Assembly: GCA_040390065.1 (NCBI GenBank)
Contig: JAZJZE010000009.1
Coordinates: 346,930 to 410,929 of the forward strand
DNA: 64,000 nucleotides
Direction of reading: 5' to 3'
Source of the DNA: a bacterium
Lineage (GTDB): Archaea > Thermoplasmatota > E2 > JACPAO01 > JAHFTW01
This document shows, piece after piece, positions 9,203 to 53,196 of the stretch. The number at the start of each line of letters is the position of its first letter. The stretch's first letter is position 1. The position numbers and the translations under genes are program-made. The notes beneath the pieces are model-generated. The model was given only the letters and a program-made list of their open reading frames with translations. It did not search any database and had not been told where the DNA came from.

Positions 9203-9269
9203 GTCAACAGACACCACAGATGCAACCGATGAATGACCTCTATCTGTTTCATCTGTTCCATCTGTTGAC
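9203..9269. repeat. 9-mer palindromic element (intergenic copy A)
   Basis: GTCAACAGAC-ACCACAGAT-GCAACCGAT-loop-ATCTGTTTC-ATCTGTTCC-ATCTGTTGAC. Confidence 0.85.
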
Positions 9270-41975: not shown

Positions 41976-43684
41976 GGGTGCGCCTTGGTTGGCATCTTGG
42001 CGACGACTTTGAGTTCCACGGCGATGGGGCCAGGGAGGGCTTGCACTTCAACTGTCGTGCGCGCTGGCTGGATGTTGCCGAAGTACTCATTGTAGACGGT
42101 GTTGAAGTCGGCGAAGTCGCGTTTCATGTCGATGAGGAAGGCGCTGACGTCGAAGACGTCTTCGAGGCTGGCTCCGGATTCTTGGAGGATGGTCTTGATG
42201 TTCTCGATGCATTGGCGGGTCTGCGCCTTGACGTCGTAGGCGAGGCGTTTGCCGTGTGCGTCGTGGACGGGGCCGCCGGTCGTCGCATTGGTTTTCGGGT
42301 GGCGGGGACCGATGCCGGCCAGGTACAGGAGGTCGCCGACGCGGCGGGCGTGGGCGTAGGCGGCGTAGGGTTTGGGGGCTTTGCTCGTCGCCACGACGCC
42401 TGACTTGTCAACAGATGGAACAGATGCACTAGATGACGAAATCTGTTTCTTCTCTTTCATCTGTTGACCCGTAGGGCGGGCAGCGGCCGTTTCCTGCAGC
42501 AAGGGCGAGCCGCCCCGCGGCCCTTCCGTCTTCGATGGCATGCGGCCTTCCCACTTGTCGCCCTCCTCCATGGTGAGGACGTTGAGTTGCGTTGCGCCGC
42601 CCGCGGAGCCGGAGGAGAGGACGTTGCGGTCGCCGCCGAAGTATTCGGCGTCGTCTTCGTCGAACTCCTTGTCGGCCGTGGCCTTCAAAGTCGGAGTGAG
42701 ACCGACGACGGCTGCGCCCGTCCCGTAGATGGGCTCGTAGGCGAACACGTTGCCGTCGTAGTGGTTGCTGGCGCCCATCACGGCGGACAGCCACCAGATG
42801 GCCTTCATCTTCTGGTCGCCGTTGGCTTGACCGGAGAATTCGCGGGCGAGTTGGCTCGCGTCCTCGAGGCGACCCTTGCCGAGGAATTCCAGGTACTTGC
42901 GGTTCCACTCGTCGTCCTTGAGGCTATGGATGCGGTCCTTCGCGAAGGGAATGATATCCGTGTGCATGCGGTTGCTGAGGGCCGTTACCGCAATTGCCAC
43001 GACGCGCTTGCCGGATGCTTGGACGGCGTCGCGGGCGGCCTTGCCGAGGACAATTGTCTCGGCGCGGTCGGCGTACATGTTGCACGACACGATCGAGGCC
43101 GCAATTTCATTCTTTGGCGACAATAGTTTGAGGGCCACGACGGAGCCGGTGTCGATGGGAAAACCGTGGTAGTCCACGGTGCGCATCTCCAGGCCGCGCT
43201 TCTCGCCGTGCTCGACGTACGACTTGCCAAAGGCTGGGTCCATGCGGAGCTTGTACGGAATGGAGCCGAGTTCATGCCATTCGGGGTCGACGTGGTTCCA
43301 CTCCGGCGCCGGCCGCGCTTGGACTTGGTGGCCGATGACCGAGAGCCACTGCGTCGAGTACAGCAAGAGGAGGTCGGGCTTGAGGCGCTTGATCTCGGCG
43401 CGCACGGACTCATAGGCGTCGCGGACGCGTTGGTACGCCGGATTCGCTTCGGGGATGAGGTAGGGGTGCGGAAGGCCAGGGACGATGAAGGCGGCGATGA
43501 GGCCTGGGCGCCCGTTCACCGACTGCGCCGCGGATGGCGCTGAGACCGCGGCGGCGTTCGGTTTCATCTGTTTCACGGGTTGACTCGACGAGCCACGGGC
43601 CGAACGAACCAAGGAACGCACAGACCCCGCTGAACGCGTGTTCTGTGGTTTCTGTAAAGTCTGCGGTTTGGTTTTGCGGGTCAT
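41972..43684 (-). CDS. amnA-amnD: 2-aminophenol 1,6-dioxygenase alpha subunit fused to RidA-family 2-aminomuconate deaminase
   Basis: AFIVPGLP, LYSTQWL, HVDPEW, GFPIDTG, DDEWNR, YGTGAAV (AmnA-like); YAHARRVGDLLYLAGIGPR..PARTTVEV..LPGPIAVELK (RidA). Confidence 0.85.
   Translation of the reverse strand: MTRKTKPQTLQKPQNTRSAGSVRSLVRSARGSSSQPVKQMKPNAAAVSAPSAAQSVNGRPGLIAAFIVPGLPHPYLIPEANPAYQRVRDAYESVRAEIKRLKPDLLLLYSTQWLSVIGHQVQARPAPEWNHVDPEWHELGSIPYKLRMDPAFGKSYVEHGEKRGLEMRTVDYHGFPIDTGSVVALKLLSPKNEIAASIVSCNMYADRAETIVLGKAARDAVQASGKRVVAIAVTALSNRMHTDIIPFAKDRIHSLKDDEWNRKYLEFLGKGRLEDASQLAREFSGQANGDQKMKAIWWLSAVMGASNHYDGNVFAYEPIYGTGAAVVGLTPTLKATADKEFDEDDAEYFGGDRNVLSSGSAGGATQLNVLTMEEGDKWEGRMPSKTEGPRGGSPLLQETAAARPTGQQMKEKKQISSSSASVPSVDKSGVVATSKAPKPYAAYAHARRVGDLLYLAGIGPRHPKTNATTGGPVHDAHGKRLAYDVKAQTRQCIENIKTILQESGASLEDVFDVSAFLIDMKRDFADFNTVYNEYFGNIQPARTTVEVQALPGPIAVELKVVAKMPTKAHP
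42407..42468. repeat. 9-mer palindromic element (copy B) in the AmnA-RidA linker
   Basis: GTCAACAGAT-GGAACAGAT-GCACTAGAT-GACGAA-ATCTGTTTC-TTCTCTTTC-ATCTGTTGAC. Confidence 0.88.
43514..43584. repeat. Degenerate 9-mer palindromic element (copy E)
   Basis: Right arm TTCGGTTTC-ATCTGTTTC-ACGGGTTGAC; left arm eroded. Confidence 0.5.
43599..43684 (-). repeat. N-terminal hairpin cassette (copy F)
   Basis: Homologous to 50987..51069; includes the start codon of amnA. Confidence 0.8.
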
Positions 43685-43939
43685 TTACGCTTCCCCCCGG
43701 CGAGGTGAGCGCGCAGCGATGGCAACCAGGCAACCCGCGGCCGCGCCCGCCACGAGTGCCGTGAGTACGGCCAGCAACGTCCCGCCACCGCCCTCGTACC
43801 AGCCTGCGGAGCGGCCACTGACTTCGCGTGCCACCGACCAAGCGAAGAGAGCCCCGTAGCTTGCGACGCCAACCACGATTCCAGCCACGATTGCACGTCT
43901 TGCAGCCCGGTTCGTTCGCGAGGCGGCTGGGACGCCCAT
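43685..43939 (-). CDS. Small two-TM membrane protein inside operon
   Basis: Abuts both neighbours with 0-nt gaps; two hydrophobic helices. Confidence 0.6.
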   Translation of the reverse strand: MGVPAASRTNRAARRAIVAGIVVGVASYGALFAWSVAREVSGRSAGWYEGGGGTLLAVLTALVAGAAAGCLVAIAARSPRRGEA

Positions 43940-44914
43940 CTACGTCCGCCCCCTCGGCGTGACTCGCCGCGTCTCCGGATTAGGGTCCCACTCCACGACG
44001 GCGTTGCCGGTGCCGATGACGGTGCCGTAGCCGTGCAGTTCCGCCGGGTACTTTGGGTACGAAAGTGCGGAAAGTAACCAGGACAGGCAACCGGCGTCGG
44101 CCTCGCTCGTCGCGTCGTCGATGAGGTCCGGCATCTCGTCGAACAGCTGCGCCGCGCGTCCTTCGCGCATGAGGCGGATGGCGTGCATGTCCCACAGGTA
44201 TTGTCCGTGGTGGTAGATGCGTTCCTGGCTCATGTCTTCGGGGAGGGCGCCTTCGCGCGTGAAGTGCCGATGGCTGATGGAATTGCTCGCGAGGAGGAGG
44301 GCGCGGCGTCCCGACTTCTCCACGGCGCGGCGCGTCGCTTCGCCGAGGGCCTTCTGCTGGGCTTGTCCGACGTCGTTGCTGTAATATTTATACGAACCAT
44401 TGGATGAAATGCCGACGATGGGTTTGTCCCACTTGGGATTCACCATGTGGCACGCCGCGATGGTGCCGTAGTCGACGCGGTATGCCGGGTTGCGCATCAT
44501 CTTCGTGACGAGGCCGGCGCCGCGGGCTTCCTTCTCGATGACCTCGGCGAGCTCGACGTCGACGTCGATGTCGCACTTGAAGCGGAAGAGGTTCGGGAAG
44601 ATCGGGTCGACGCTCAGGTTCGAGAAGTGCTTCACGCCGAGGAAGTGGTGGCCGACTTGGGTTCTCCAATGCGGCGAGTGCACGATGATGACATCGTATT
44701 CGCGCATCTTGCGGTCGAGGCTTGCCCGCAGCCGTTCGTAGCCCCACCGAACCGGCTCCCAGCCGCACTCGGCCGTCGCCTCGTTCTCTGGCGGGTTGTC
44801 GGCGTAGACGAGGTGGGGCGGATGCGGCGAGAGGCAACCGGCCACGATGCGGCCTTGCTGCGCCGTCGGCTGGGGGCGATTTTGGGCTTTGCCACGCGGG
44901 GCTTGCCGTGCCAT
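43940..44914 (-). CDS. amnB: 2-aminophenol 1,6-dioxygenase beta (catalytic) subunit
   Basis: SPHPPHLVYADNPPENE, VHSPHW, SVDPIFPNLFR, MMRNPAYRVDYGT, GYGTVIGTGNAVVEW, close to the recalled AmnB sequence. Confidence 0.9.
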   Translation of the reverse strand: MARQAPRGKAQNRPQPTAQQGRIVAGCLSPHPPHLVYADNPPENEATAECGWEPVRWGYERLRASLDRKMREYDVIIVHSPHWRTQVGHHFLGVKHFSNLSVDPIFPNLFRFKCDIDVDVELAEVIEKEARGAGLVTKMMRNPAYRVDYGTIAACHMVNPKWDKPIVGISSNGSYKYYSNDVGQAQQKALGEATRRAVEKSGRRALLLASNSISHRHFTREGALPEDMSQERIYHHGQYLWDMHAIRLMREGRAAQLFDEMPDLIDDATSEADAGCLSWLLSALSYPKYPAELHGYGTVIGTGNAVVEWDPNPETRRVTPRGRT

Positions 44915-44990
44915 CGCCGAAGACGACCGCCGCTTGCCGTATCACTGTTTTGGACCCGGCCTGGCCCACGCTTACGTGGCCGGCTGGCGC

Positions 44991-45203
44991 CTACACGACG
45001 TGCAGGGCTTCGTTGGCATCCGCTTGACCGATGGCGCCCATCGACGGGGCATGCCGGCAGCGCGGGCACGGCACGCCGACGCTCTGCGTCTTCGCCCAAG
45101 CGACGAACACGCCGGTCCCGTGGCACGTTGGACACCCATGCGGTGGCTCGAAGATGATGCCAAGGGCGGTATCCCCGATACGCCAACTCCTTTGGGGTTC
45201 CAT
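44991..45203 (-). CDS. Small DnaJ-type Zn-finger protein
   Basis: CPTCHGTGVF..CPRC; paralog of 55042..55233. Confidence 0.6.
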   Translation of the reverse strand: MEPQRSWRIGDTALGIIFEPPHGCPTCHGTGVFVAWAKTQSVGVPCPRCRHAPSMGAIGQADANEALHVV

Positions 45204-45304
45204 GGCCCCACCTTCCGAGGCGCGCGCCCATAAGGCGTGGGTTTGCCAACGCCGCCCACACCCGCCAGGTCCCAGGAGGCAACCTTGAAGGGGGAGCCCC
45301 ATGC

Positions 45305-45613
45305 GTGGCCGTGGACGAAGCCGGGTTGGCGGAGGCCCAAGCCGACTTGGTGGCCTGGGGTCTCCTCGACGACGGCGTCCCCGTCCAGGTGTCACGCCGT
45401 GGCCGAGCCGCCCTGGCACGTGCCGCCGCCTTTCTTCGCGAAGAAGAAGTCCAGGGCCGACCGCGCGAAGGGCATCCGCTCTTGCTGACCGCCGAGATCG
45501 CAATCGCGGCGGCCTTGCCCGAGGGGGCATCCGCGACCGTGGAGCACCACCGCCTGCTGGCCGCCGTGGAGCTCGCGTCCCTTCCAGAGGGTGTGCGCGG
45601 GATGTTCACCTAG
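45305..45613 (+). CDS. Hypothetical protein
   Basis: Fills gap; convergent stop overlap with AhpD gene. Confidence 0.5.
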   Translation: MAVDEAGLAEAQADLVAWGLLDDGVPVQVSRRGRAALARAAAFLREEEVQGRPREGHPLLLTAEIAIAAALPEGASATVEHHRLLAAVELASLPEGVRGMFT

Positions 45614-46104
45614 CGGCTCTTGGCCGTGACGACGGGGCGCCCCGCCGTCGGCGTCGGGGGCGCCTGAGCCTTCAGGTAGGCGACGATCTGGTTCAGTTCC
45701 TTGTCGAATGTCGCCTGCGGCATTGCCGTCCCGTTGAGGATGGTCGAGCCTTGACGCGTCAGGCTGGCCATGAAGACGGCTTCCTGGATCTCCTGCTCGG
45801 TTGCGCCGTTGAGGCGAGCCGCTTCGGTGTGGAAGAGCACGCAGTAGTGGCACGGGATCTGGGCGGAGACGCCGAGGCCGATTAGTTCCTTGACCTTCCC
45901 GGAGAGCGCCGTCTTGTCCGACAGCTGGAAGTCGCGCAGGCCGGCCCACCAGAGCCGGAATTCGTTGGGCTGCAGGACGTTGGCAAAGGATGGCACCATG
46001 CCGAAGGTCTTCGTCAGTTCCGTCTTGAGGTCATTGGGCAGGCTTGTCGGAGGGTTGGATGTGGGCATGTTGGGCACCCGACCAGGGGCATTCCCGTCAC
46101 CCAT
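45610..46104 (-). CDS. Carboxymuconolactone decarboxylase/AhpD family
   Basis: KELIGLGVSAQIPCHYCVLFHTEAARLNGATEQEI. Confidence 0.9.
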   Translation of the reverse strand: MGDGNAPGRVPNMPTSNPPTSLPNDLKTELTKTFGMVPSFANVLQPNEFRLWWAGLRDFQLSDKTALSGKVKELIGLGVSAQIPCHYCVLFHTEAARLNGATEQEIQEAVFMASLTRQGSTILNGTAMPQATFDKELNQIVAYLKAQAPPTPTAGRPVVTAKSR

Positions 46105-46227
46105 ATGAGGGGGAGGGCCGAGGCAGGCACCGCCGACCCGGTTGCTTGCTCCTGGACCAGGATCATCGCCGGTTCCTTGCAGCTCACGCGTGGCCCGCGC
46201 CTGGAATCGCCCGCCAGCTCTCGCCGG

Positions 46228-47430
46228 TCACGCCTCTTCTGCCTTCGAGCGGCGCGCTCTTGCGCCCAGGCCTGCCAAGAGCACGGCTGCGACGGCCGCG
46301 GGGATTGGCAACGCGGGCGTCCCATTCGAAGCGGCCGGCGCCACCTGCGCTGCTGCCGTGCCGTCCGGGGCCCACGTCAGGTTGTGCAACAGCAACGTCG
46401 TCGCCCCGCCGATGGCCACGGGTTGGCCGTGCGCGTCGGCGTCGATGTCGAGGAACATCCTGTCGTGCCATTTCATGGCGCCCGCCGGACCGGACAGGTG
46501 CACCGCGCACGACGCGGGCAACGTGGAGTACGCGCACGTGGCGTCGCCTGGGATGCCGCGCCCACTCACGTACAAGGTGACGCGCAGGTCGACTGAACCC
46601 GCGGTCGGCTGCGTCGCATTGCCGACACTTGCCAGGCCGATGACGAGGTCTGCCGTTCCGCCGACATGCAAGTCACGCGGCGCATCCCAGTAGTCGCTCA
46701 GGACCTTGCTGGCAAACACTGGAGCCGGCCCGACGGGACACGAAGCGGAGGGCAGCGCAGTGAGGGCGATGGCCAGGCAGCGCTGGGAGCCCTGTCCGAC
46801 GTGGAATTCGATGTCCCCCGATGGGGGCAAAAGCGAGAGCGCGGAGGCCGTCACGTTGGCGCGCACGACAGGGAGCCCCCAGGTGCCGGCCAGTTCGATG
46901 CGCGATGGGTCTGAGCCGCCAAACACCATGGAAGGCGTGAACACGGCGGCGATCGTGGGGAACCGAACGGCGACCGAGGTCTCGAGGAAGGGCACCGCAG
47001 CGCCCGGACCGGCCAAGGCGACGTCGCAGATGTCCGCGACATCGCACAACCGTTTCCCCGTCGCGACGAGGGTCTGGCCATGCGTGACGTCGACCTGGAC
47101 CTCGAAGACGCCGGGATGAAGGAGCGGGGAGAAGCGCAGGAACGCCGTCCCTTGGCCGGTGGCGTTCAGGATGAGGTCCGTGCCGTTGCCATTGAACATG
47201 TGGGGGGGCGCCCCTCCCTGCCCGGCGGCTGCCACGGCGAATCCCTGGCCGCACGAGCCGGAGTCCGCCGCCGGCTCCGCGATAAGGTTGTAGGGGCCGC
47301 AGGCGAAGTTCGCTTGGTCGCCCCGGTCCATGTAGAGCACCAGTTTGTCGCCTTGGGTGACGGCGCCGGCCTGCGGCGTCACGGTTGCCCCGAGAACCAG
47401 GAAGGCCATGACGACCGCCAGCCGCATCAT
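46228..47430 (-). CDS. Secreted surface protein with PGF-CTERM-like anchor
   Basis: Signal peptide AGA; C-terminal TPALPIPAAVAAVLLAGLGARARR. Confidence 0.7.
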   Translation of the reverse strand: MMRLAVVMAFLVLGATVTPQAGAVTQGDKLVLYMDRGDQANFACGPYNLIAEPAADSGSCGQGFAVAAAGQGGAPPHMFNGNGTDLILNATGQGTAFLRFSPLLHPGVFEVQVDVTHGQTLVATGKRLCDVADICDVALAGPGAAVPFLETSVAVRFPTIAAVFTPSMVFGGSDPSRIELAGTWGLPVVRANVTASALSLLPPSGDIEFHVGQGSQRCLAIALTALPSASCPVGPAPVFASKVLSDYWDAPRDLHVGGTADLVIGLASVGNATQPTAGSVDLRVTLYVSGRGIPGDATCAYSTLPASCAVHLSGPAGAMKWHDRMFLDIDADAHGQPVAIGGATTLLLHNLTWAPDGTAAAQVAPAASNGTPALPIPAAVAAVLLAGLGARARRSKAEEA

Positions 47431-49046
47431 GGCGCACCGCCCTTCACGCAGATGTTGCGCGGTTCCGAGAAGAAGTCCAGTGAGTGGCGGCCGCCTTCGC
47501 GCCCGACGCCCGATTCCTTCATGCCCCCAAAGGGCACCCGCAAGTCGCGCACAAGCCAACAGTTGACCCAGACCATGCCGGTGTCGAGAGCCTCGGCAAC
47601 TCGTTTGGCTTTTGCGGCGTCGGTCGTCCAGACGCTGGCGGCTAGACCATACCGCACGTCGTTGGCGAGCCGGACGGCCTCGGCCTCGTCCGCGAAGGCC
47701 TGGATCGTGACGACGGGTCCGAAGATTTCCTCCTGCACGCAGCGCGACGACTGCGCCAGACCGGTCACGATCGTCGGTTCCAGAAACGCCCCGTCCGAGA
47801 ACGGCGTCGGCAACTTGGGGCGGGATCCACCGAGCGGGATTCGTCCGCCGTCTGCCTTTGCGATCGTGATGTAGGCCTCGACCTTGGCGCGGTGCTCCTT
47901 GCTCACAAGGCTGCCGAGGTCCGTCGCCGGGTCCGCCGGGTCGCCGACCTTCATCTGCTGGGTTCGGGCGACGAGGCGCTTCGTGAACTCCTTCTCGGCC
48001 TTCGCCTCGACGAGGATACGCGAGCCGCACAAGCAGATTTGCCCGGTGTTCGTAAACGCGGAACGCACGACGCCTTCGACGGTTGCGTCCATGTCGCAGT
48101 CGGCAAAGACGATGGTCGGATTCTTGCCGCCGAGTTCGAGGCTGACCTTCTTGAGGTGGGGCGCCGCCGATTGCGCGACGCGGCGACCCGTCGCCGTTCC
48201 ACCGGTGAAGGAGATGGCCCGCACCTCAGGATGCTCGACAAGCGCTTGGCCGGCTTCGGGGCCGAGACCGTGGACGACGTTGAAGACGCCGGGCGGCAGA
48301 CCGGCTTCCAGCAGGACCTTGCCGAGAGCGTCGGCCGACAGCGGCGTCAATTCCGAGGGCTTGGCCACGACCGTGTTGCCCATGGCAAGGGCCGGTGCCG
48401 CCTTCCAGGACAGGAGATAGATGGGCAGGTTCCACGGCGTGATGAGCCCAACGACGCCGACGGGGGCGCGCACCGTGTAGTTGAGATGGCCCGGCATCGG
48501 ATGCTCGATGCGGCCTTCAGCGACCGCGAACTCGGCGAAGAAACGCAGATTCGAAATGGCACGCGGAACGTCGAGGCTGCGCGCGAGCTTGACGGGCTTG
48601 CCGGTGTCCCGCGATTCGAGCGACGCGAACTCGTCCATGCGCGACTCGATGAGGTCGGCGGCCTTCGTCAAAATGGCGCAGCGCTTGGCGAGTGGCGTCG
48701 CGGACCAAGCGGGGAGTGCGGTTTTCGCGGCAGCAACGGCTGCGGCGACGTCGGACGTGCCACTGCGAGGGATGGTGGCGATTTCCTTGCTCGTGGCGGG
48801 ATTGATGACGGAGATTGTGCGGCCGTCGGCTGCGGGTCTTGATGTGCCGGCGATGAGGTTGCCGACGTCGACGACCGCCCCATCAACAGATGCAGCAGGT
48901 GCCGACCGGAACGAAGCGGTGGAATCGGTTGTATCCGTTGCATCGGTTGACCGTTGGGCGTCGCGCCTGGCGAACCCGTACGCGCGCGCCAAGTCCCTCT
49001 GGGCGACCTTGCGGTCCTTCTCGAGCCAATCGAAGCCGTCGGTCAT
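47427..49046 (-). CDS. amnC: Aldehyde dehydrogenase (2-aminomuconate 6-semialdehyde dehydrogenase-like)
   Basis: ITPWNLPIYLLSWK, FTGGTATG, LELGGKNP, GQICLCGSR, EEIFGPV, WVNCWLVRDLRVPFGG. Confidence 0.88.
   Translation of the reverse strand: MTDGFDWLEKDRKVAQRDLARAYGFARRDAQRSTDATDTTDSTASFRSAPAASVDGAVVDVGNLIAGTSRPAADGRTISVINPATSKEIATIPRSGTSDVAAAVAAAKTALPAWSATPLAKRCAILTKAADLIESRMDEFASLESRDTGKPVKLARSLDVPRAISNLRFFAEFAVAEGRIEHPMPGHLNYTVRAPVGVVGLITPWNLPIYLLSWKAAPALAMGNTVVAKPSELTPLSADALGKVLLEAGLPPGVFNVVHGLGPEAGQALVEHPEVRAISFTGGTATGRRVAQSAAPHLKKVSLELGGKNPTIVFADCDMDATVEGVVRSAFTNTGQICLCGSRILVEAKAEKEFTKRLVARTQQMKVGDPADPATDLGSLVSKEHRAKVEAYITIAKADGGRIPLGGSRPKLPTPFSDGAFLEPTIVTGLAQSSRCVQEEIFGPVVTIQAFADEAEAVRLANDVRYGLAASVWTTDAAKAKRVAEALDTGMVWVNCWLVRDLRVPFGGMKESGVGREGGRHSLDFFSEPRNICVKGGAP
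48883..48951. repeat. 9-mer palindromic element (copy D) in ALDH N-terminal extension
   Basis: TCAACAGAT-GCAGCAGGT-..-ATCGGTTGT-ATCCGTTGC-ATCGGTTGAC. Confidence 0.75.
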
Positions 49047-49819
49047 GTGGGGCCTGCCGCAGGAGCCGAGCCAGCAGGGAAACTGAGGAAGAACTCGGCG
49101 AAGAAAATGAGGACGGCAAGACCGCCGGCGACGAGAGCAATCCAGTTTCGCGCGTGGTAGGAACCACCCTGCAGGCGCATTGTTGCCTCGGCGACGCCCC
49201 ACACGCCGCCGAAGGCCGACAGGAGCCAGGCGATGGCAACCGGTACGACCAACCAGGTGGGCGGGGCGTTTGGCAAGGCCGGCGCAAGAGCCGCCAGCAC
49301 GGTGGTGGCAAGGGCCGCAAAGGCAACGCCCACAAGCCACGCTGCCACGGGCTCCGGCACGGGCGCCGTCACGGATGGGGCTGGCCTCCGCCGGCGGGCG
49401 CGACCTCCCGACCACCAAAGTACCGCGGCCCCTGCGCCGAACCCCAGGCCGAAGGCGACGGGGAATTCCACGGCGTCCGCCCTGGGCCGGCCACGTGCGG
49501 CAACGACGATGAGGACCGTGAAGAGCAGGCCGACGCAAGCGACGACGATGGCCGCAATCTGTAGGCCATGAAGGGGGCCGGTGCCCTTGGGCAGTGGGGG
49601 CGACCGCTCGACCATTACGCGGTTGACGACGGGCCGAGGTTTGGCCGTTGCCGCAAGACGCCAACACACTGCGGCGAGGCCGAGGAAAATGACCTCCATG
49701 GCGAGGGCGTCGAGCCAACGGTTCGTGGCGGTCGGGCGGACAAGAGCCTCATACGCGGCCAGTTGAGCCAGGGCGACGAAGGCGACGGCCACGATTCTCC
49801 AGGTTCTTGCCGGCGACAT
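49043..49819 (-). CDS. Multi-pass membrane protein inside operon
   Basis: About seven hydrophobic segments; coupled start/stop with both neighbours. Confidence 0.65.
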   Translation of the reverse strand: MSPARTWRIVAVAFVALAQLAAYEALVRPTATNRWLDALAMEVIFLGLAAVCWRLAATAKPRPVVNRVMVERSPPLPKGTGPLHGLQIAAIVVACVGLLFTVLIVVAARGRPRADAVEFPVAFGLGFGAGAAVLWWSGGRARRRRPAPSVTAPVPEPVAAWLVGVAFAALATTVLAALAPALPNAPPTWLVVPVAIAWLLSAFGGVWGVAEATMRLQGGSYHARNWIALVAGGLAVLIFFAEFFLSFPAGSAPAAGPT

Positions 49820-51069
49820 CACGGCCCCCACCCCGGCGCCGGCCATTCGGGTGCCCACTCGTTCCAGTCGTAGTACCAGCGGTCGTCGTTGGGGTCCCAG
49901 TCGTCCCACGTCGGAATCGCTTCCAACTTCTTGGCGTACTTGGTCGGCACGATGCCGGGGACGAGGAACGCCTTCTGCCGGTTCAATTTATAGGGATTCC
50001 TCAATTCAAATCCGAGGACGCCGAGGATGGCCCGTGCGACGTACCAAGTGGCCCTCGGGTTCCAGCCGTGCGCGATCTTGACGACGACGCCGAGGCCGTC
50101 GGGGTAATCGGGGTGCACGATGGACAATCCGAGGAGGCCGTCCGCGCCTTCCTTCGCGATGACCTTGCCCTTGCAGGCCTTCAGAATCGTGGAGTCGAGG
50201 CGGTTGAAGCCGCCGACGAGGTCGGGATTCTTCGTCATGGCCTCCCAGATCCAGTCCTCGTCGCGTTCCTGGGCGAGGCGGGCATAGAGGAGGGCGAGTT
50301 CGTTGACCGTGTTCGACGCGGTCGGCAATCCGCAGCCGTCGCGGGCGACGCGGGCTGGCTGCCAATCCTTGCCGAGGAAGCGGCGCACTTCGTCGAGGTA
50401 GGCCTGGAACCACGGGTGCTGCGGCAGGAGGTAGCCGATGCGCGGCCAGCCCTTCTCTTTGCAACCCCGAATCAATGCGGCGTGCTCGCCGGAACACGTG
50501 TGATACCAACGCCGGGGCCGGCGAACCTGTCGTCCGAACTGGACGAGCGGGACATCCAGGGGGGCTTGCATGAGGCCCCACTCCGTCGGCATGAGGATGC
50601 TCTGCGCCGCCGCGACGTGCTCGGTGTCGCCGTTGTGGCTGCTGCACGAGATGGCCTTCTGCTCCCACGACAGCCCCGCGAGTTCCTTGGCGAAGACCTT
50701 CATGACGAGCGGCTTCATCATCGAGCGCCCATAGCACAGGACGTTGCCGCCGAAGGAATGGATGATTTTTCCCGGTTTTCCGTCCTTGCCCCCAACGGCC
50801 CACGCCACGGCGCCGTGGATTGTTGTTTCCGACACGCCGTATCTTCGGTAGTCGACGAGCGGCTCCCATTCCACGTCTCTGCCGGTTGGGATGCCTTTGA
50901 CTTGTTCTCCCAGCGGCGACGTCGGATACATTTCGCGGCCGGGGCCGGTTTGGAGATGGGACTTTTGGGGCTGGCCGTTTTTCGGCGCCGAACGAACCAC
51001 TGAACGCACTGAACGTCGCGTCTGGTTCAGTGAGCTCAGTGGCTTCAGTGGCTTGGTTTGGCGGGTCAT
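49819..51069 (-). CDS. L-asparaginase II (Rhizobium AnsA-type) family amidohydrolase, variant
   Basis: RSMMKP, SSHNG, TCSGEH, DGCGLP, AKEGADG. Confidence 0.8.
   Translation of the reverse strand: MTRQTKPLKPLSSLNQTRRSVRSVVRSAPKNGQPQKSHLQTGPGREMYPTSPLGEQVKGIPTGRDVEWEPLVDYRRYGVSETTIHGAVAWAVGGKDGKPGKIIHSFGGNVLCYGRSMMKPLVMKVFAKELAGLSWEQKAISCSSHNGDTEHVAAAQSILMPTEWGLMQAPLDVPLVQFGRQVRRPRRWYHTCSGEHAALIRGCKEKGWPRIGYLLPQHPWFQAYLDEVRRFLGKDWQPARVARDGCGLPTASNTVNELALLYARLAQERDEDWIWEAMTKNPDLVGGFNRLDSTILKACKGKVIAKEGADGLLGLSIVHPDYPDGLGVVVKIAHGWNPRATWYVARAILGVLGFELRNPYKLNRQKAFLVPGIVPTKYAKKLEAIPTWDDWDPNDDRWYYDWNEWAPEWPAPGWGP
50987..51069 (-). repeat. N-terminal hairpin cassette (copy G)
   Basis: Tandem CACTGA 9-mers versus TTCAGTG 9-mers; includes the start codon. 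Confidence 0.8.
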
Positions 51070-52382
51070 GCCGGCTCCGTCCTTGCTGCCACTGTCGGCC
51101 GCACCTTCTCCATGAACGCCTCCATGTTCCGTACAACCCGCGCGGAATCATGGTTGAAGAAATCGAACCACAGCATCAACCGGTCCTCAGGATGATACCG
51201 TGCGCGAATCTGCTCGGCGACCTGCGCCGCCGTCCCAATCACGGCGTTGTCGGCAGCCGTCTCCGTCTTCTTCGGGTCCAGCGTTCCCTCCAAAGCGGTC
51301 CAGTACGCATGCAGCGCCTTCTTCGCCTCCGTCTGCGCCGCCGCTGTCCGCCGCGCCGGAGTCAAGCCGGGCTCCTCGTTGATGAAAACGAGCACCGTGC
51401 GCGGCATGTAGCTGCGCTTCCATTTGCCGCCATCCTTGTGGAACGCCTTGGCCATGCGTTCGTGCGTCGCGTCGATGACGGGTGTTGGCGTGATGCTCAG
51501 GTTCGCGACGTGCGCGGGCAGGAAACGGTTCACGAGTTCGTGCACGGCGGGGTCGTGGCTGCCGACGACGAGCTGCAGAAGGTCGCGGCGGAATTCCTGG
51601 GGGACAATCTTGAGGTGCTCGAAGACGAAGCGCTTCGGCAGAGTGATTTCGGGGTTCGCCGACGCTGGCTTTTCAACAGATGAAACAGAAACAACAGATG
51701 AAGTGCCTGACATCTGTTCCATCTGTTCAATCTGTTGACCCGTCGTCTGGGCGGCGGCCAGGGCCTTCTGCCAATCCTCCTCGGACCGGAAATCCTTCCG
51801 CGTCACCTTGCGAAGGGGAATGTCCGCGCCGCAAATCGTTTCGCCCGCAAGCAGTCGAGCGAAGATCTCGGCCGCTTCGTCGAAGACCTTGCCTTTCCAC
51901 AGCCCAAACGGCAACGCCTTCTCGAGTGGCGTTTGCGGGTCGATGCCGTAGGCGCGGTTCTGGAAGTCGAAGCGGCCTGCGCTGAAGCCGACGTGCAGAC
52001 GGCGGCGTTCGTTCGGGTCCAACCCGTGCAGGCTGAGGAAGTAGGCAATGCGCTCGGCGTGGGCGACGGGGCCACCAGACTGCAGGAGGTTGAGGACCGC
52101 GGAGCCGACGTCGATGCGTTTGGTGCGCCGAAAGACTTCGTGCGCGGTCTGCATGATGTCGACGTTGAGCCCGACTTCGCCCTGCCAATGCGGCACGACG
52201 GGCTTGCGGTTGCGCTTCTGCACTTCCGTGGAAAGGTGCGCCTCGGCGACCCAGGCGACGCCGAAGCCCAAGCGGTCGGCGGCCTCGACTTGTTGGAAGA
52301 AGTGCGCAAGCATGGTGCGCTCGTCCGGCGTCACGCCGTCGACGGGCGTTTGCGAGATGGAGAAGAAGACGTCGAACTCCAT
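51066..52382 (-). CDS. LLM-class flavin-dependent oxidoreductase
   Basis: EAADRLGFGVAWVAEAHLS, IDVGSAV, ERIA, RLHVGFSAG, FMEKVRP. Confidence 0.9.
   Translation of the reverse strand: MEFDVFFSISQTPVDGVTPDERTMLAHFFQQVEAADRLGFGVAWVAEAHLSTEVQKRNRKPVVPHWQGEVGLNVDIMQTAHEVFRRTKRIDVGSAVLNLLQSGGPVAHAERIAYFLSLHGLDPNERRRLHVGFSAGRFDFQNRAYGIDPQTPLEKALPFGLWKGKVFDEAAEIFARLLAGETICGADIPLRKVTRKDFRSEEDWQKALAAAQTTGQQIEQMEQMSGTSSVVSVSSVEKPASANPEITLPKRFVFEHLKIVPQEFRRDLLQLVVGSHDPAVHELVNRFLPAHVANLSITPTPVIDATHERMAKAFHKDGGKWKRSYMPRTVLVFINEEPGLTPARRTAAAQTEAKKALHAYWTALEGTLDPKKTETAADNAVIGTAAQVAEQIRARYHPEDRLMLWFDFFNHDSARVVRNMEAFMEKVRPTVAARTEPA
51673..51739. repeat. 9-mer palindromic element (copy C) inside LLM gene
   Basis: TCAACAGAT-GAAACAGAA-ACAACAGAT-12 nt-ATCTGTTCC-ATCTGTTCA-ATCTGTTGAC. 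Confidence 0.9.
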
Positions 52383-52482
52383 GGCGCGGCGCCTTCCCAT
52401 TCCGGCCGTTATCTCAAGGTTTCCCCCCGGGCCTTGCCGCGACGGGGCCCCTTGAGTAGGGCAACGGCGCAGAGATGGACCC

Positions 52483-53196
52483 ATGACGCTTGAGGATGCC
52501 CAGGCCACGGAAGCCAAGGCCAACCAGCCGACCTCGGGCAAGCCAGCGCCCGCCAAGCCCGCCGCTCCGGCAGGCAGCCAACCTACTGCCGCTCCCGCGC
52601 CAGACACACCGGCCGAACAGCCCGCCACCGCCGTTCGGCCGACGCCGCCGACAGCGCCAGCCGCAGCGCCGCCAGCCGCCTCGGCTCGACCACCCCGACC
52701 CCCCGCAGCAGGCCGTAGCCGACCGCCCGGCGAGGTGGGAGGCCACACAGTGCAGCCGTGGGAGCAAGGGGACGCCAACCCCGCCCCGGCAAGCGGCACA
52801 AGCCGCGCGACCCCGCCCCCGAGCCCAGGCGCGCCCGAAGCGGCCGCCACCCAACCACAACCGACGCCCGCCACGCCCGCCGCACCTGCAGTCAAACCGG
52901 TCGCCAAGGCATCGACGACGCCGAAGCCGGCCCCTAACGCCTCACCAGCAACGGTAACTCCTGACAAGGCCCAACTCATCGAGGCCCTGACAAAGACGTT
53001 GGCCGACATGCTCGCGCGGGCGCTGCGCCAAAGCATCAGCGACGCCGTCGATGCCGCAGCGGCCGCGCCGGCCGCCCCTGCCAGGTCTACCGCCGCGGCG
53101 CCCGCCCCCGCAAAACCTGCGCCCGTCGCCGCGCCGAAGCCAACCCCGCCCGCAGACGAAGGACAAGGCGCTCCATCGCCCCCTCCAGCCGCTTGA
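52483..53196 (+). CDS. Pro/Ala-rich low-complexity protein
   Basis: Disordered P/A/T-rich sequence with one amphipathic helix (QLIEALTKTLADMLARALRQSI). Confidence 0.6.
   Translation: MTLEDAQATEAKANQPTSGKPAPAKPAAPAGSQPTAAPAPDTPAEQPATAVRPTPPTAPAAAPPAASARPPRPPAAGRSRPPGEVGGHTVQPWEQGDANPAPASGTSRATPPPSPGAPEAAATQPQPTPATPAAPAVKPVAKASTTPKPAPNASPATVTPDKAQLIEALTKTLADMLARALRQSISDAVDAAAAAPAAPARSTAAAPAPAKPAPVAAPKPTPPADEGQGAPSPPPAA

Follow-up and report, generated by a model that had tools for sequence, protein, structure and literature searches.

Probable in-frame repeat insertion, not a leader cassette, at the shared starts of two archaeal enzyme genes

Two unrelated enzyme genes begin with similar hairpin-bearing stretches in a window of 64,000 nucleotides (nt), the whole stretch of DNA that was analysed, from an uncultured, high-GC Thermoplasmatota archaeon (own genome, here G000: 2.68 Mb in 50 contigs, 66.8 % GC, 89 % complete). 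Both genes lie on the reverse strand: P0001 (41972..43684, 570 aa) is a LigB-RidA fusion gene with Pfam domains LigB at residues 80-326 and Ribonuc_L-PSP/RidA at 434-563, and P0002 (49819..51069, 416 aa) belongs to the Pfam Asparaginase_II family. The shared starts are real and beyond chance, and they represent in-frame repeat insertion rather than a leader cassette. Both belong to a family of palindromic repeats that is specific to this lineage and dispersed in the genome; we consider it likely that the element is translated through whenever it lies inside a gene, and it is probably selfish.

The LigB-RidA cassette measures 86 nt (43599..43684, reverse strand) and that of the asparaginase-II-like gene 83 nt (50987..51069, reverse strand); P0001 starts with MTRKTKPQTLQKPQNTRSAGSVRSLVRSA and P0002 with MTRQTKPLKPLSSLNQTRRSVRSVVRSA, as given in an earlier, sequence-only reading of the window. 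Alignment of the two showed 58 of 86 columns to be identical with a single 3-nt gap, and this, together with their positions, confirmed the description of two similar starts that differ by one codon in length and sit directly at an upstream stop. Specifically, the asparaginase start overlaps, as ATGA, the TGA of an upstream luciferase-like monooxygenase open reading frame (ORF; 51066..53036, reverse strand), and the LigB-RidA ATG directly follows the TAA of an 84-codon candidate ORF for a predicted small membrane protein (43685..43939, reverse strand). The 20-nt head ATGACCCGCMAAACCAARCC was found at only these two sites in the 2.68-Mb assembly, with up to two mismatches allowed. In both cassettes the palindrome extends out to the CGC that follows ATGACC, leaving only ATGAcc outside it; the appearance of one and the same cassette at two genes is thus explained by the reach of the palindrome and by an ATGA that the stop overlap imposes. 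The 9-nt periodic inverted arms ascribed to both are evident in the asparaginase cassette (minimum free energy −42.4 kcal/mol, z-score −2.9, 2 of 200 shuffles equally good), the core of which is CACTGAA/TTCAGTG. They did not stand up in the LigB-RidA cassette (z-score +0.93, 163 of 200 shuffles equally good), where the units are mixed (CGCAGA/CACAGA); this is a decayed hairpin, yet one that is still recognized by the model described below. In G000, the 84-codon candidate ORF, with two predicted hydrophobic stretches, lies between LigB-RidA and an AmnB-like gene, two genes that most relatives have side by side, overlapping at TGATG.

Membership of a repeat family was assessed with a covariance model, R1, built from the hairpins of 10 relatives only, with no G000 sequence in training. 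R1 recognizes both the LigB-RidA cassette (43607-43668, 28.7 bits, E-value 1.5e-5) and the asparaginase cassette (50995-51044, 38 bits, E-value 4e-8), in agreement with the kinship to a 9-mer family that had been proposed from the sequence, and it matches three further sites within the window, one of them a copy in a tandem gene spacer that stands in a different reading phase (9203..9269, 31.3 bits). Rfam 15, searched over the whole window at gathering score, matched only a tRNA. In members of the family, the arms, each composed of two or three 9-nt units in tandem (nCRCNGAwn / nwTCNGYGn), are enclosed by an outer stem, CGnCGAmsAAACC ... GGTTyCGTCGnCG. Class-A copies have a common outer stem, ..CGAACGAACC / GGTTCGTTCG.., which coding copies read as T-K-P and V-R-S. 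An exact-seed scan of G000 returned at least 22 nonamer-armed hairpins, with cores that include CACTGAA, AACAGAT, CAACCGA and GGAATCCAC; approximately 36 copies were compiled by hand from this and looser scans, and a regular expression for the family motif found 30 loci, where three Markov shuffles gave 0-4. Among 41 genomes, R1 matched in 14, namely G000 itself, all 12 others of the same genus and one from another genus (G019), with no match in the remaining 27. With both strands counted and the best 128 candidates per genome scored, there were at least 39 matches in G000, at least 8 in G006 and at least 80 in G007.

The start codon and the Shine-Dalgarno-like motif ahead of it are host features that are older than the element. 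We compared the same-genus loci of both genes, read upstream of a conserved anchor (12 loci for asparaginase and 14 for LigB-RidA), and found that hairpin-less asparaginase orthologues begin at the same stop-overlapping codon in G007 (MKHHLESGPG.., MKHHLESGPGSEMYPTSP) and G015 (MQPSMVASGPG..), as does a hairpin-less LigB-RidA orthologue in G013 (MPVVAGFVVP..); LigB-RidA in G007 and G016 is also without the hairpin, but there the upstream context differs. Across orthologues these stop-overlapping starts are either ATG or GTG. At 7 of the 12 asparaginase loci, hairpin-less G007 included, the junction start is preceded by GGAGGT plus 6 nt, at the others by GGAG or GGCGGTG, and at LigB-RidA loci by GAGGTTGAT or GGGGGCGGA; a motif of this kind is present in all three of the hairpin-less orthologues named above (G007, G015 and G013). 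As hairpin-less orthologues share the stop-overlapping start, the cassette is not a start-codon donor, contrary to what had been claimed for it; translation most likely begins at the ATG at the upstream stop. A different palindrome, with 14-nt arms and an 11-nt loop, encloses the stop-overlapping LigB-RidA ATG at one locus of G006 (L023:1405-1443), putting the start inside the stem, and its motif was also seen around the LigB-RidA ATG in G008 (L024).

For each orthologue, all canonical in-frame starts were listed relative to the position of the hairpin. In LigB-RidA of G005, G011, G012 and G010 every one of them lies upstream, and with no canonical start downstream of it the hairpin must be translated in these four; in G001 and G002 the only other starts sit in the 5′ arm or the loop. 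In the asparaginase gene, residue Met-47 (MYPTSP) is replaced by Gln in G008, G003 and G011, whilst the SH[LI]Q[ST]GPG block that lies upstream is kept as protein and in G007 begins at the stop-overlapping ATG; in G000 no canonical start separates the hairpin from this block. These findings bear directly on the possibility that the G000 cassettes are untranslated spacer, with true starts downstream (ATG-40 or GTG-37 in LigB-RidA, Met-47 in asparaginase) and ORFs that are open by chance at 67 % GC. Such starts do exist in frame in G000, ORFs stay open far upstream at many loci, and one study cautions that many repetitive extragenic palindromes (REPs) placed at the N-terminus of a predicted ORF may lie outside genes (PMC3733652). 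Nevertheless, the loss of Met-47 in three relatives, the conservation of the block ahead of it, the four LigB-RidA orthologues without a downstream start, and a Shine-Dalgarno-like motif that precedes the junction start and not the downstream candidates make untranslated spacer an improbable account. Judged from the arrangement of frames and starts, the element would actually be translated in both genes.

A nonamer hairpin occupies the same N-terminal place at 10 of the 12 asparaginase loci and 10 of the 14 LigB-RidA loci; the structure is kept at the same starts in relatives and, as part of a dispersed family, is repeated elsewhere. Its core varies between orthologues (CACTGA, CACGAA, CACAGA, CACCGA, CACGGA, CGCGGA, CGCAGA and GGGGAT), and sister genomes have a core type in common, which suggests long vertical retention. 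On an alignment of ten orthologous N-terminal hairpins (A1), with a 27-pair structure counted, 86.5 % of 267 cells were paired against 28.6-42.5 % when the partner was slid. The base-pair covariation that the sequence-only reading had proposed to look for is present: the arms of A1 co-vary, with 36 double-sided changes, a number that none of 500 shuffles reached. The central base of the unit forms AU in 4 of the hairpins, GC in 3, CG in 2 and UA in 1, and is identical in all units of any one hairpin. Since the spacer column pairs 14/62, 22/54 and 23/53 hardly pair (in 0, 1 and 3 of 10 sequences, respectively), the stem consists of three 7-bp helices split by small internal loops; recognition by a protein, a coding constraint or the avoidance of palindromes that are both long and perfect could be the reason for this periodic mismatch. 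G·U outnumbered A·C 6 to 3 in A1, counts too small to tell RNA pairing from DNA pairing.

The peptides encoded by these hairpins differ freely between orthologues (PLKPLSSLN..SVRSVV, TDSTDFTD..SVQSVKSV and PRIARMTRM..KSAASAKSAV, for example) and have no hydrophobic core. This speaks against the shared N-terminus as a targeting or co-localization peptide for enzymes of one pathway, an idea raised alongside the leader module. Similar basic tails on two neighbouring cluster enzymes, and on three in relatives, would fit such a role; however, orthologues conserve the nucleotide palindrome only and not the peptide, there is no hydrophobic or amphipathic signature, and the same element is found in a seryl-tRNA synthetase (SerRS), in intergenic DNA and between convergent genes, such that we regard a targeting function as very unlikely. 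In six relatives (G002, G005, G008, G009, G001 and G011), an in-frame nonamer hairpin likewise opens the LigB paralogue of AmnB-like type that lies upstream of LigB-RidA (L016:3249-3316, L021:3936-4000, L024:435-499, L019:4020-4084, L018:248-312 and L020:420-493, with 308-313 codons downstream), so that several consecutive cluster genes begin with a hairpin in those genomes.

Additional copies lie in frame well inside genes. Within P0001 itself, a copy in the interdomain linker (42407..42468, reverse strand; R1 21.5 bits, E-value 1.6e-3) has the core CAACAGATG/CATCTGTTG and reads ..PTGQQMKEKKQISSSSASVPSVDK..; such linker inserts occur at 9 of the 14 LigB-RidA loci, twice in G008, and at every one of the 14 the length of the linker is divisible by 3. 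The linker copy was also considered as the creator of the LigB-RidA fusion and rejected, as the gene is already fused in the hairpin-less G005, G006, G007, G013 and G016. A second in-frame copy is found in the luciferase-like monooxygenase ORF (51672..51739, reverse strand; R1 33.9 bits on the forward and 31.3 on the reverse strand), where it reads ..TTGQQIEQMEQMSGTSSVVSVSSVEK..; among 11 loci with both flanks, this loop insert is present in 5 (G000, G004, G002, G008 and G003), and G007, G009, G012, G001 and G011 have the loop without it. A third copy, found in G000 only, is located in SerRS (C17:43680-43750; L107:2140-2216), at a surface-loop position between the Pfam Seryl_tRNA_N domain (1-107) and the class II core (267-444), and contributes the insert ..GPPTDGQQMKQNKQIAGSPSASSAASVPSVDKFG... 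This is the single SerRS match in the genome, and the insert is missing from all 22 relatives in which both flanks were found, the closest relative G004 included. In G007 a hairpin copy lies ∼18 nt past the SerRS stop (L113:2124-2185), so that SerRS is met at different places in different genomes.

A search of 168 kb of compared loci with R1 gave 50 distinct matches, of which 43 sit in a frame that runs on, without a stop, into the coding sequence downstream and 7 are intergenic. No fewer than nine different gene positions are represented, one of them the AmnB-like paralogue start, and in 40 of the 43 the 3′ arm is read as S-[VAPE]; the three exceptions are one weak case, one copy with a CACGAA core and one false positive. 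Copies in ORFs thus share one phase, in which the 3′ arm encodes Ser-Val/Ala and the 5′ arm Pro/Thr-Leu/Gln/Arg-x or Thr-Asp/Glu-x, whilst the remaining two phases would encode Ile/Phe-Cys/Ser or x-Cys/Trp/stop. The bias may well reflect selection for small, flexible residues. Phase also bears on whether in-ORF copies are excised from the mRNA, intron-like, at the hairpin and never translated. Archaea splice bulge-helix-bulge introns, and the elements do form strong hairpins; an excised element, however, need not be stop-free, a multiple of three or confined to a single phase. Linker lengths and the phase of 40 of 43 copies run counter to that freedom, and the N-terminal copies lie downstream of the sole available start codon. 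We therefore give excision scarcely any credence.

Several points weigh against a dispersed, probably selfish repeat that is translated in passing. The in-frame downstream starts of G000 (GTG-37 and ATG-40 in LigB-RidA; GTGs of the 3′ arm or Met-47 in asparaginase) are one, and since orthologues are not independent, the in-frame and phase counts overstate the number of events. No public RNA run was listed that covers positions 49800-51800 of the window, the sole run with this stretch being a DNA run, perhaps the one from which the assembly came. In G000 we found no transposase or other mobilizing gene; Y1_Tnp/RAYT (PF01797) had 0 matches there (a genome 89 % complete, the relatives not being searched), with the control matched in 6 of 14 genomes. 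At the SerRS site, a single site aligned pairwise with affine gaps between G000 and G004, no target-site duplication was seen: a loop segment of ∼30 nt in G004 is replaced by ∼138 nt in G000 with no direct repeat. Finally, selection for a function could instead be the reason why hairpins are retained at the same gene starts throughout the genus, with stems that are near-perfect and covary.

Selection of that kind is the substance of a further alternative, according to which selection maintains the hairpins at gene junctions as RNA (or DNA) modules, serving the stability of the upstream 3′ end or making the downstream gene dependent on re-initiation, with the in-frame peptide as the price of the start/stop overlap. 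Consistent with this are the hairpins at the same starts of most asparaginase and LigB-RidA loci, their presence at the AmnB-like paralogue start in six relatives, their covarying arms, the core types common to sister genomes with the long vertical retention these suggest, and, for 16 of the 36 copies in G000, a core located 11-39 nt past a stop codon that faces it. Such nearness to stops, however, is expected of any spacer-filling element in a compact genome, and copies are found in every context: of the 36, ∼15 are tandem, 7 convergent, 5 divergent and 2 intragenic, with 7 unassigned, although these gene contexts come from a crude home-made coding-potential score, which is itself a point against our interpretation. 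Moreover, copies in SerRS, in the monooxygenase loop and in the domain linker are at no junction, G007 is without both N-terminal hairpins despite at least 80 R1 matches, the G000 LigB-RidA copy has decayed, and G·U against A·C gave no strand signal. A junction module of this type is, in our view, possible but unlikely; the portable coupling or leader module originally envisaged is not supported, given the copies that lie within ORFs or that separate convergent or divergent genes, nor is the shared targeting peptide that accompanied it.

As a dispersed repeat, the element would persist where it does little harm, that is, in short spacers just past stops and, in one reading phase, in tolerant parts of ORFs such as N-termini, linkers and surface loops. 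At ATGA junctions, which are without spacer, it falls within the opening codons of the gene downstream and would be translated; lying only a few codons downstream of the host start, it would be read through by ribosomes. Such read-through would give each enzyme a basic, Ser/Val-rich N-terminal tail of ∼25-30 residues, and the likeness of the two tails would be a by-product of family membership. We suggest that the arms are kept complementary by slippage among tandem units together with arm-to-arm conversion, or else by selection. A more specific version, which we hold only tentatively, is that the family has become adapted to existence within genes: a coding-compatible mobile hairpin, kept palindromic by concerted arm-to-arm evolution, that seeds disordered tails, linkers and loop insertions. 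As each unit is exactly three codons, gain or loss of a unit never shifts the frame. Were this version true, the hairpin would reach essential genes as well as the first codons of operon genes, and the family would be an archaeal counterpart of the Rickettsia palindromic elements (RPEs).

By behaviour, RPEs appear to be the closest analogue, along with REPs located in ORFs and at ORF N-termini, and as the host is an archaeon the likeness to the ten described RPE families is claimed as an analogy only. RPEs are described, in PMC10969869 (citing Ogata et al., 2000), as dispersed palindromic repeats in frame inside functional genes, including housekeeping genes. Like RPEs as portrayed there, the archaeal family consists of multicopy palindromes in frame in unrelated functional genes, adding a peptide segment, with copy numbers that vary among close relatives. 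Unlike RPEs, which are bacterial and ∼150 bp long, the archaeal elements are ∼65-110 nt, have arms in which 9-nt (three-codon) units stand in tandem and mismatches recur periodically, turn over their core in concert at orthologous sites and in many cases lie just past start codons that overlap an upstream stop. The fixed reading phase sets them apart both from RPEs and from REPs located in ORFs.

REPs are presented by Di Nocera et al. (2013; PMC3733652) as short hairpins that are mostly extragenic near gene ends, with some in ORFs and these commoner at N-termini than at ends. The archaeal family is similar in comprising short hairpins near gene ends, some within ORFs; its arms, however, are of ∼27 nt and form three 7-bp helices, against stems of 8-9 bp and loops of 4-5 nt for REPs in that account. 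A GACG/CGTC tag within 16 nt of the match end, variable in position, accompanies 30 of 49 copies (61 %) compared with 26 % of random positions, and both tags flank 8 of 49 compared with 1.9 %; this enrichment may recall the CGTC-tagged repeats, which include RPEs (PMC3733652).

MITEs of archaea and bacteria (miniature transposable elements bounded by inverted repeats) appear in PMC10969869 as small, non-coding, multicopy and lineage-specific, with inverted repeats and some in-frame fusions. In size, copy number, lineage specificity and inverted-repeat structure the archaeal family matches this outline, but where MITEs have terminal repeats around a core, the whole unit is here one hairpin, and no target-site duplication accompanies the one datable insertion. 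Translational coupling at overlapping stop and start codons in archaea is treated by Huber et al. (2023; PMC10666635). Both of our genes and their orthologues resemble such junctions in their ATGA, GTGA and TGATG overlaps and upstream Shine-Dalgarno-like motif; unlike in a coupling device, the overlap here is a host feature, present without the hairpin, which is added downstream of the start. Our literature search found no description of this archaeal hairpin family, with subscription journals and supplements outside the search. Among bacterial hairpin repeats, REPIN-RAYT systems have reportedly been described by Bertels and Rainey in 2011.

For annotation, the consequence is that odd N-termini, tails, linkers and loop inserts shared across this genus are to be read as repeat-derived and not as functional motifs. 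Palindromic repeats that are translated in frame, of which Rickettsia provides the best-known cases, would accordingly occur in Archaea too, with an unusual three-codon periodicity and a fixed phase. Furthermore, orthologous hairpins in which six units change together offer a natural system for the study of concerted palindrome evolution, and copies right past stop-overlapping starts provide a test of whether hairpins tune translational coupling in uncultured archaea.

Outside the window, G000 contains a second family of palindromic repeats, ∼85-100 nt long and with GC-rich termini that are conserved; it numbers at least 10 copies, some of which have 9-nt periodic inner units (C9:329657-329744, C9:217820-217907, C9:83297-83372, C11:201341-201424, C17:93698-93783 and C1:390904-390987). 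Additionally, solo 9-mer arms occur at C2:21016-21320, C9:269964-270400, C17:38600-38786 and C8:17780-18340, each followed by a common repeat segment of ∼100-150 nt with 76-83 % identity; these solo arms with their shared segment are composite or nested repeats. When a carried gene was sought at these sites, an ORF beside one of the arms was seen, by eye, to have a Cys/His-rich pattern.

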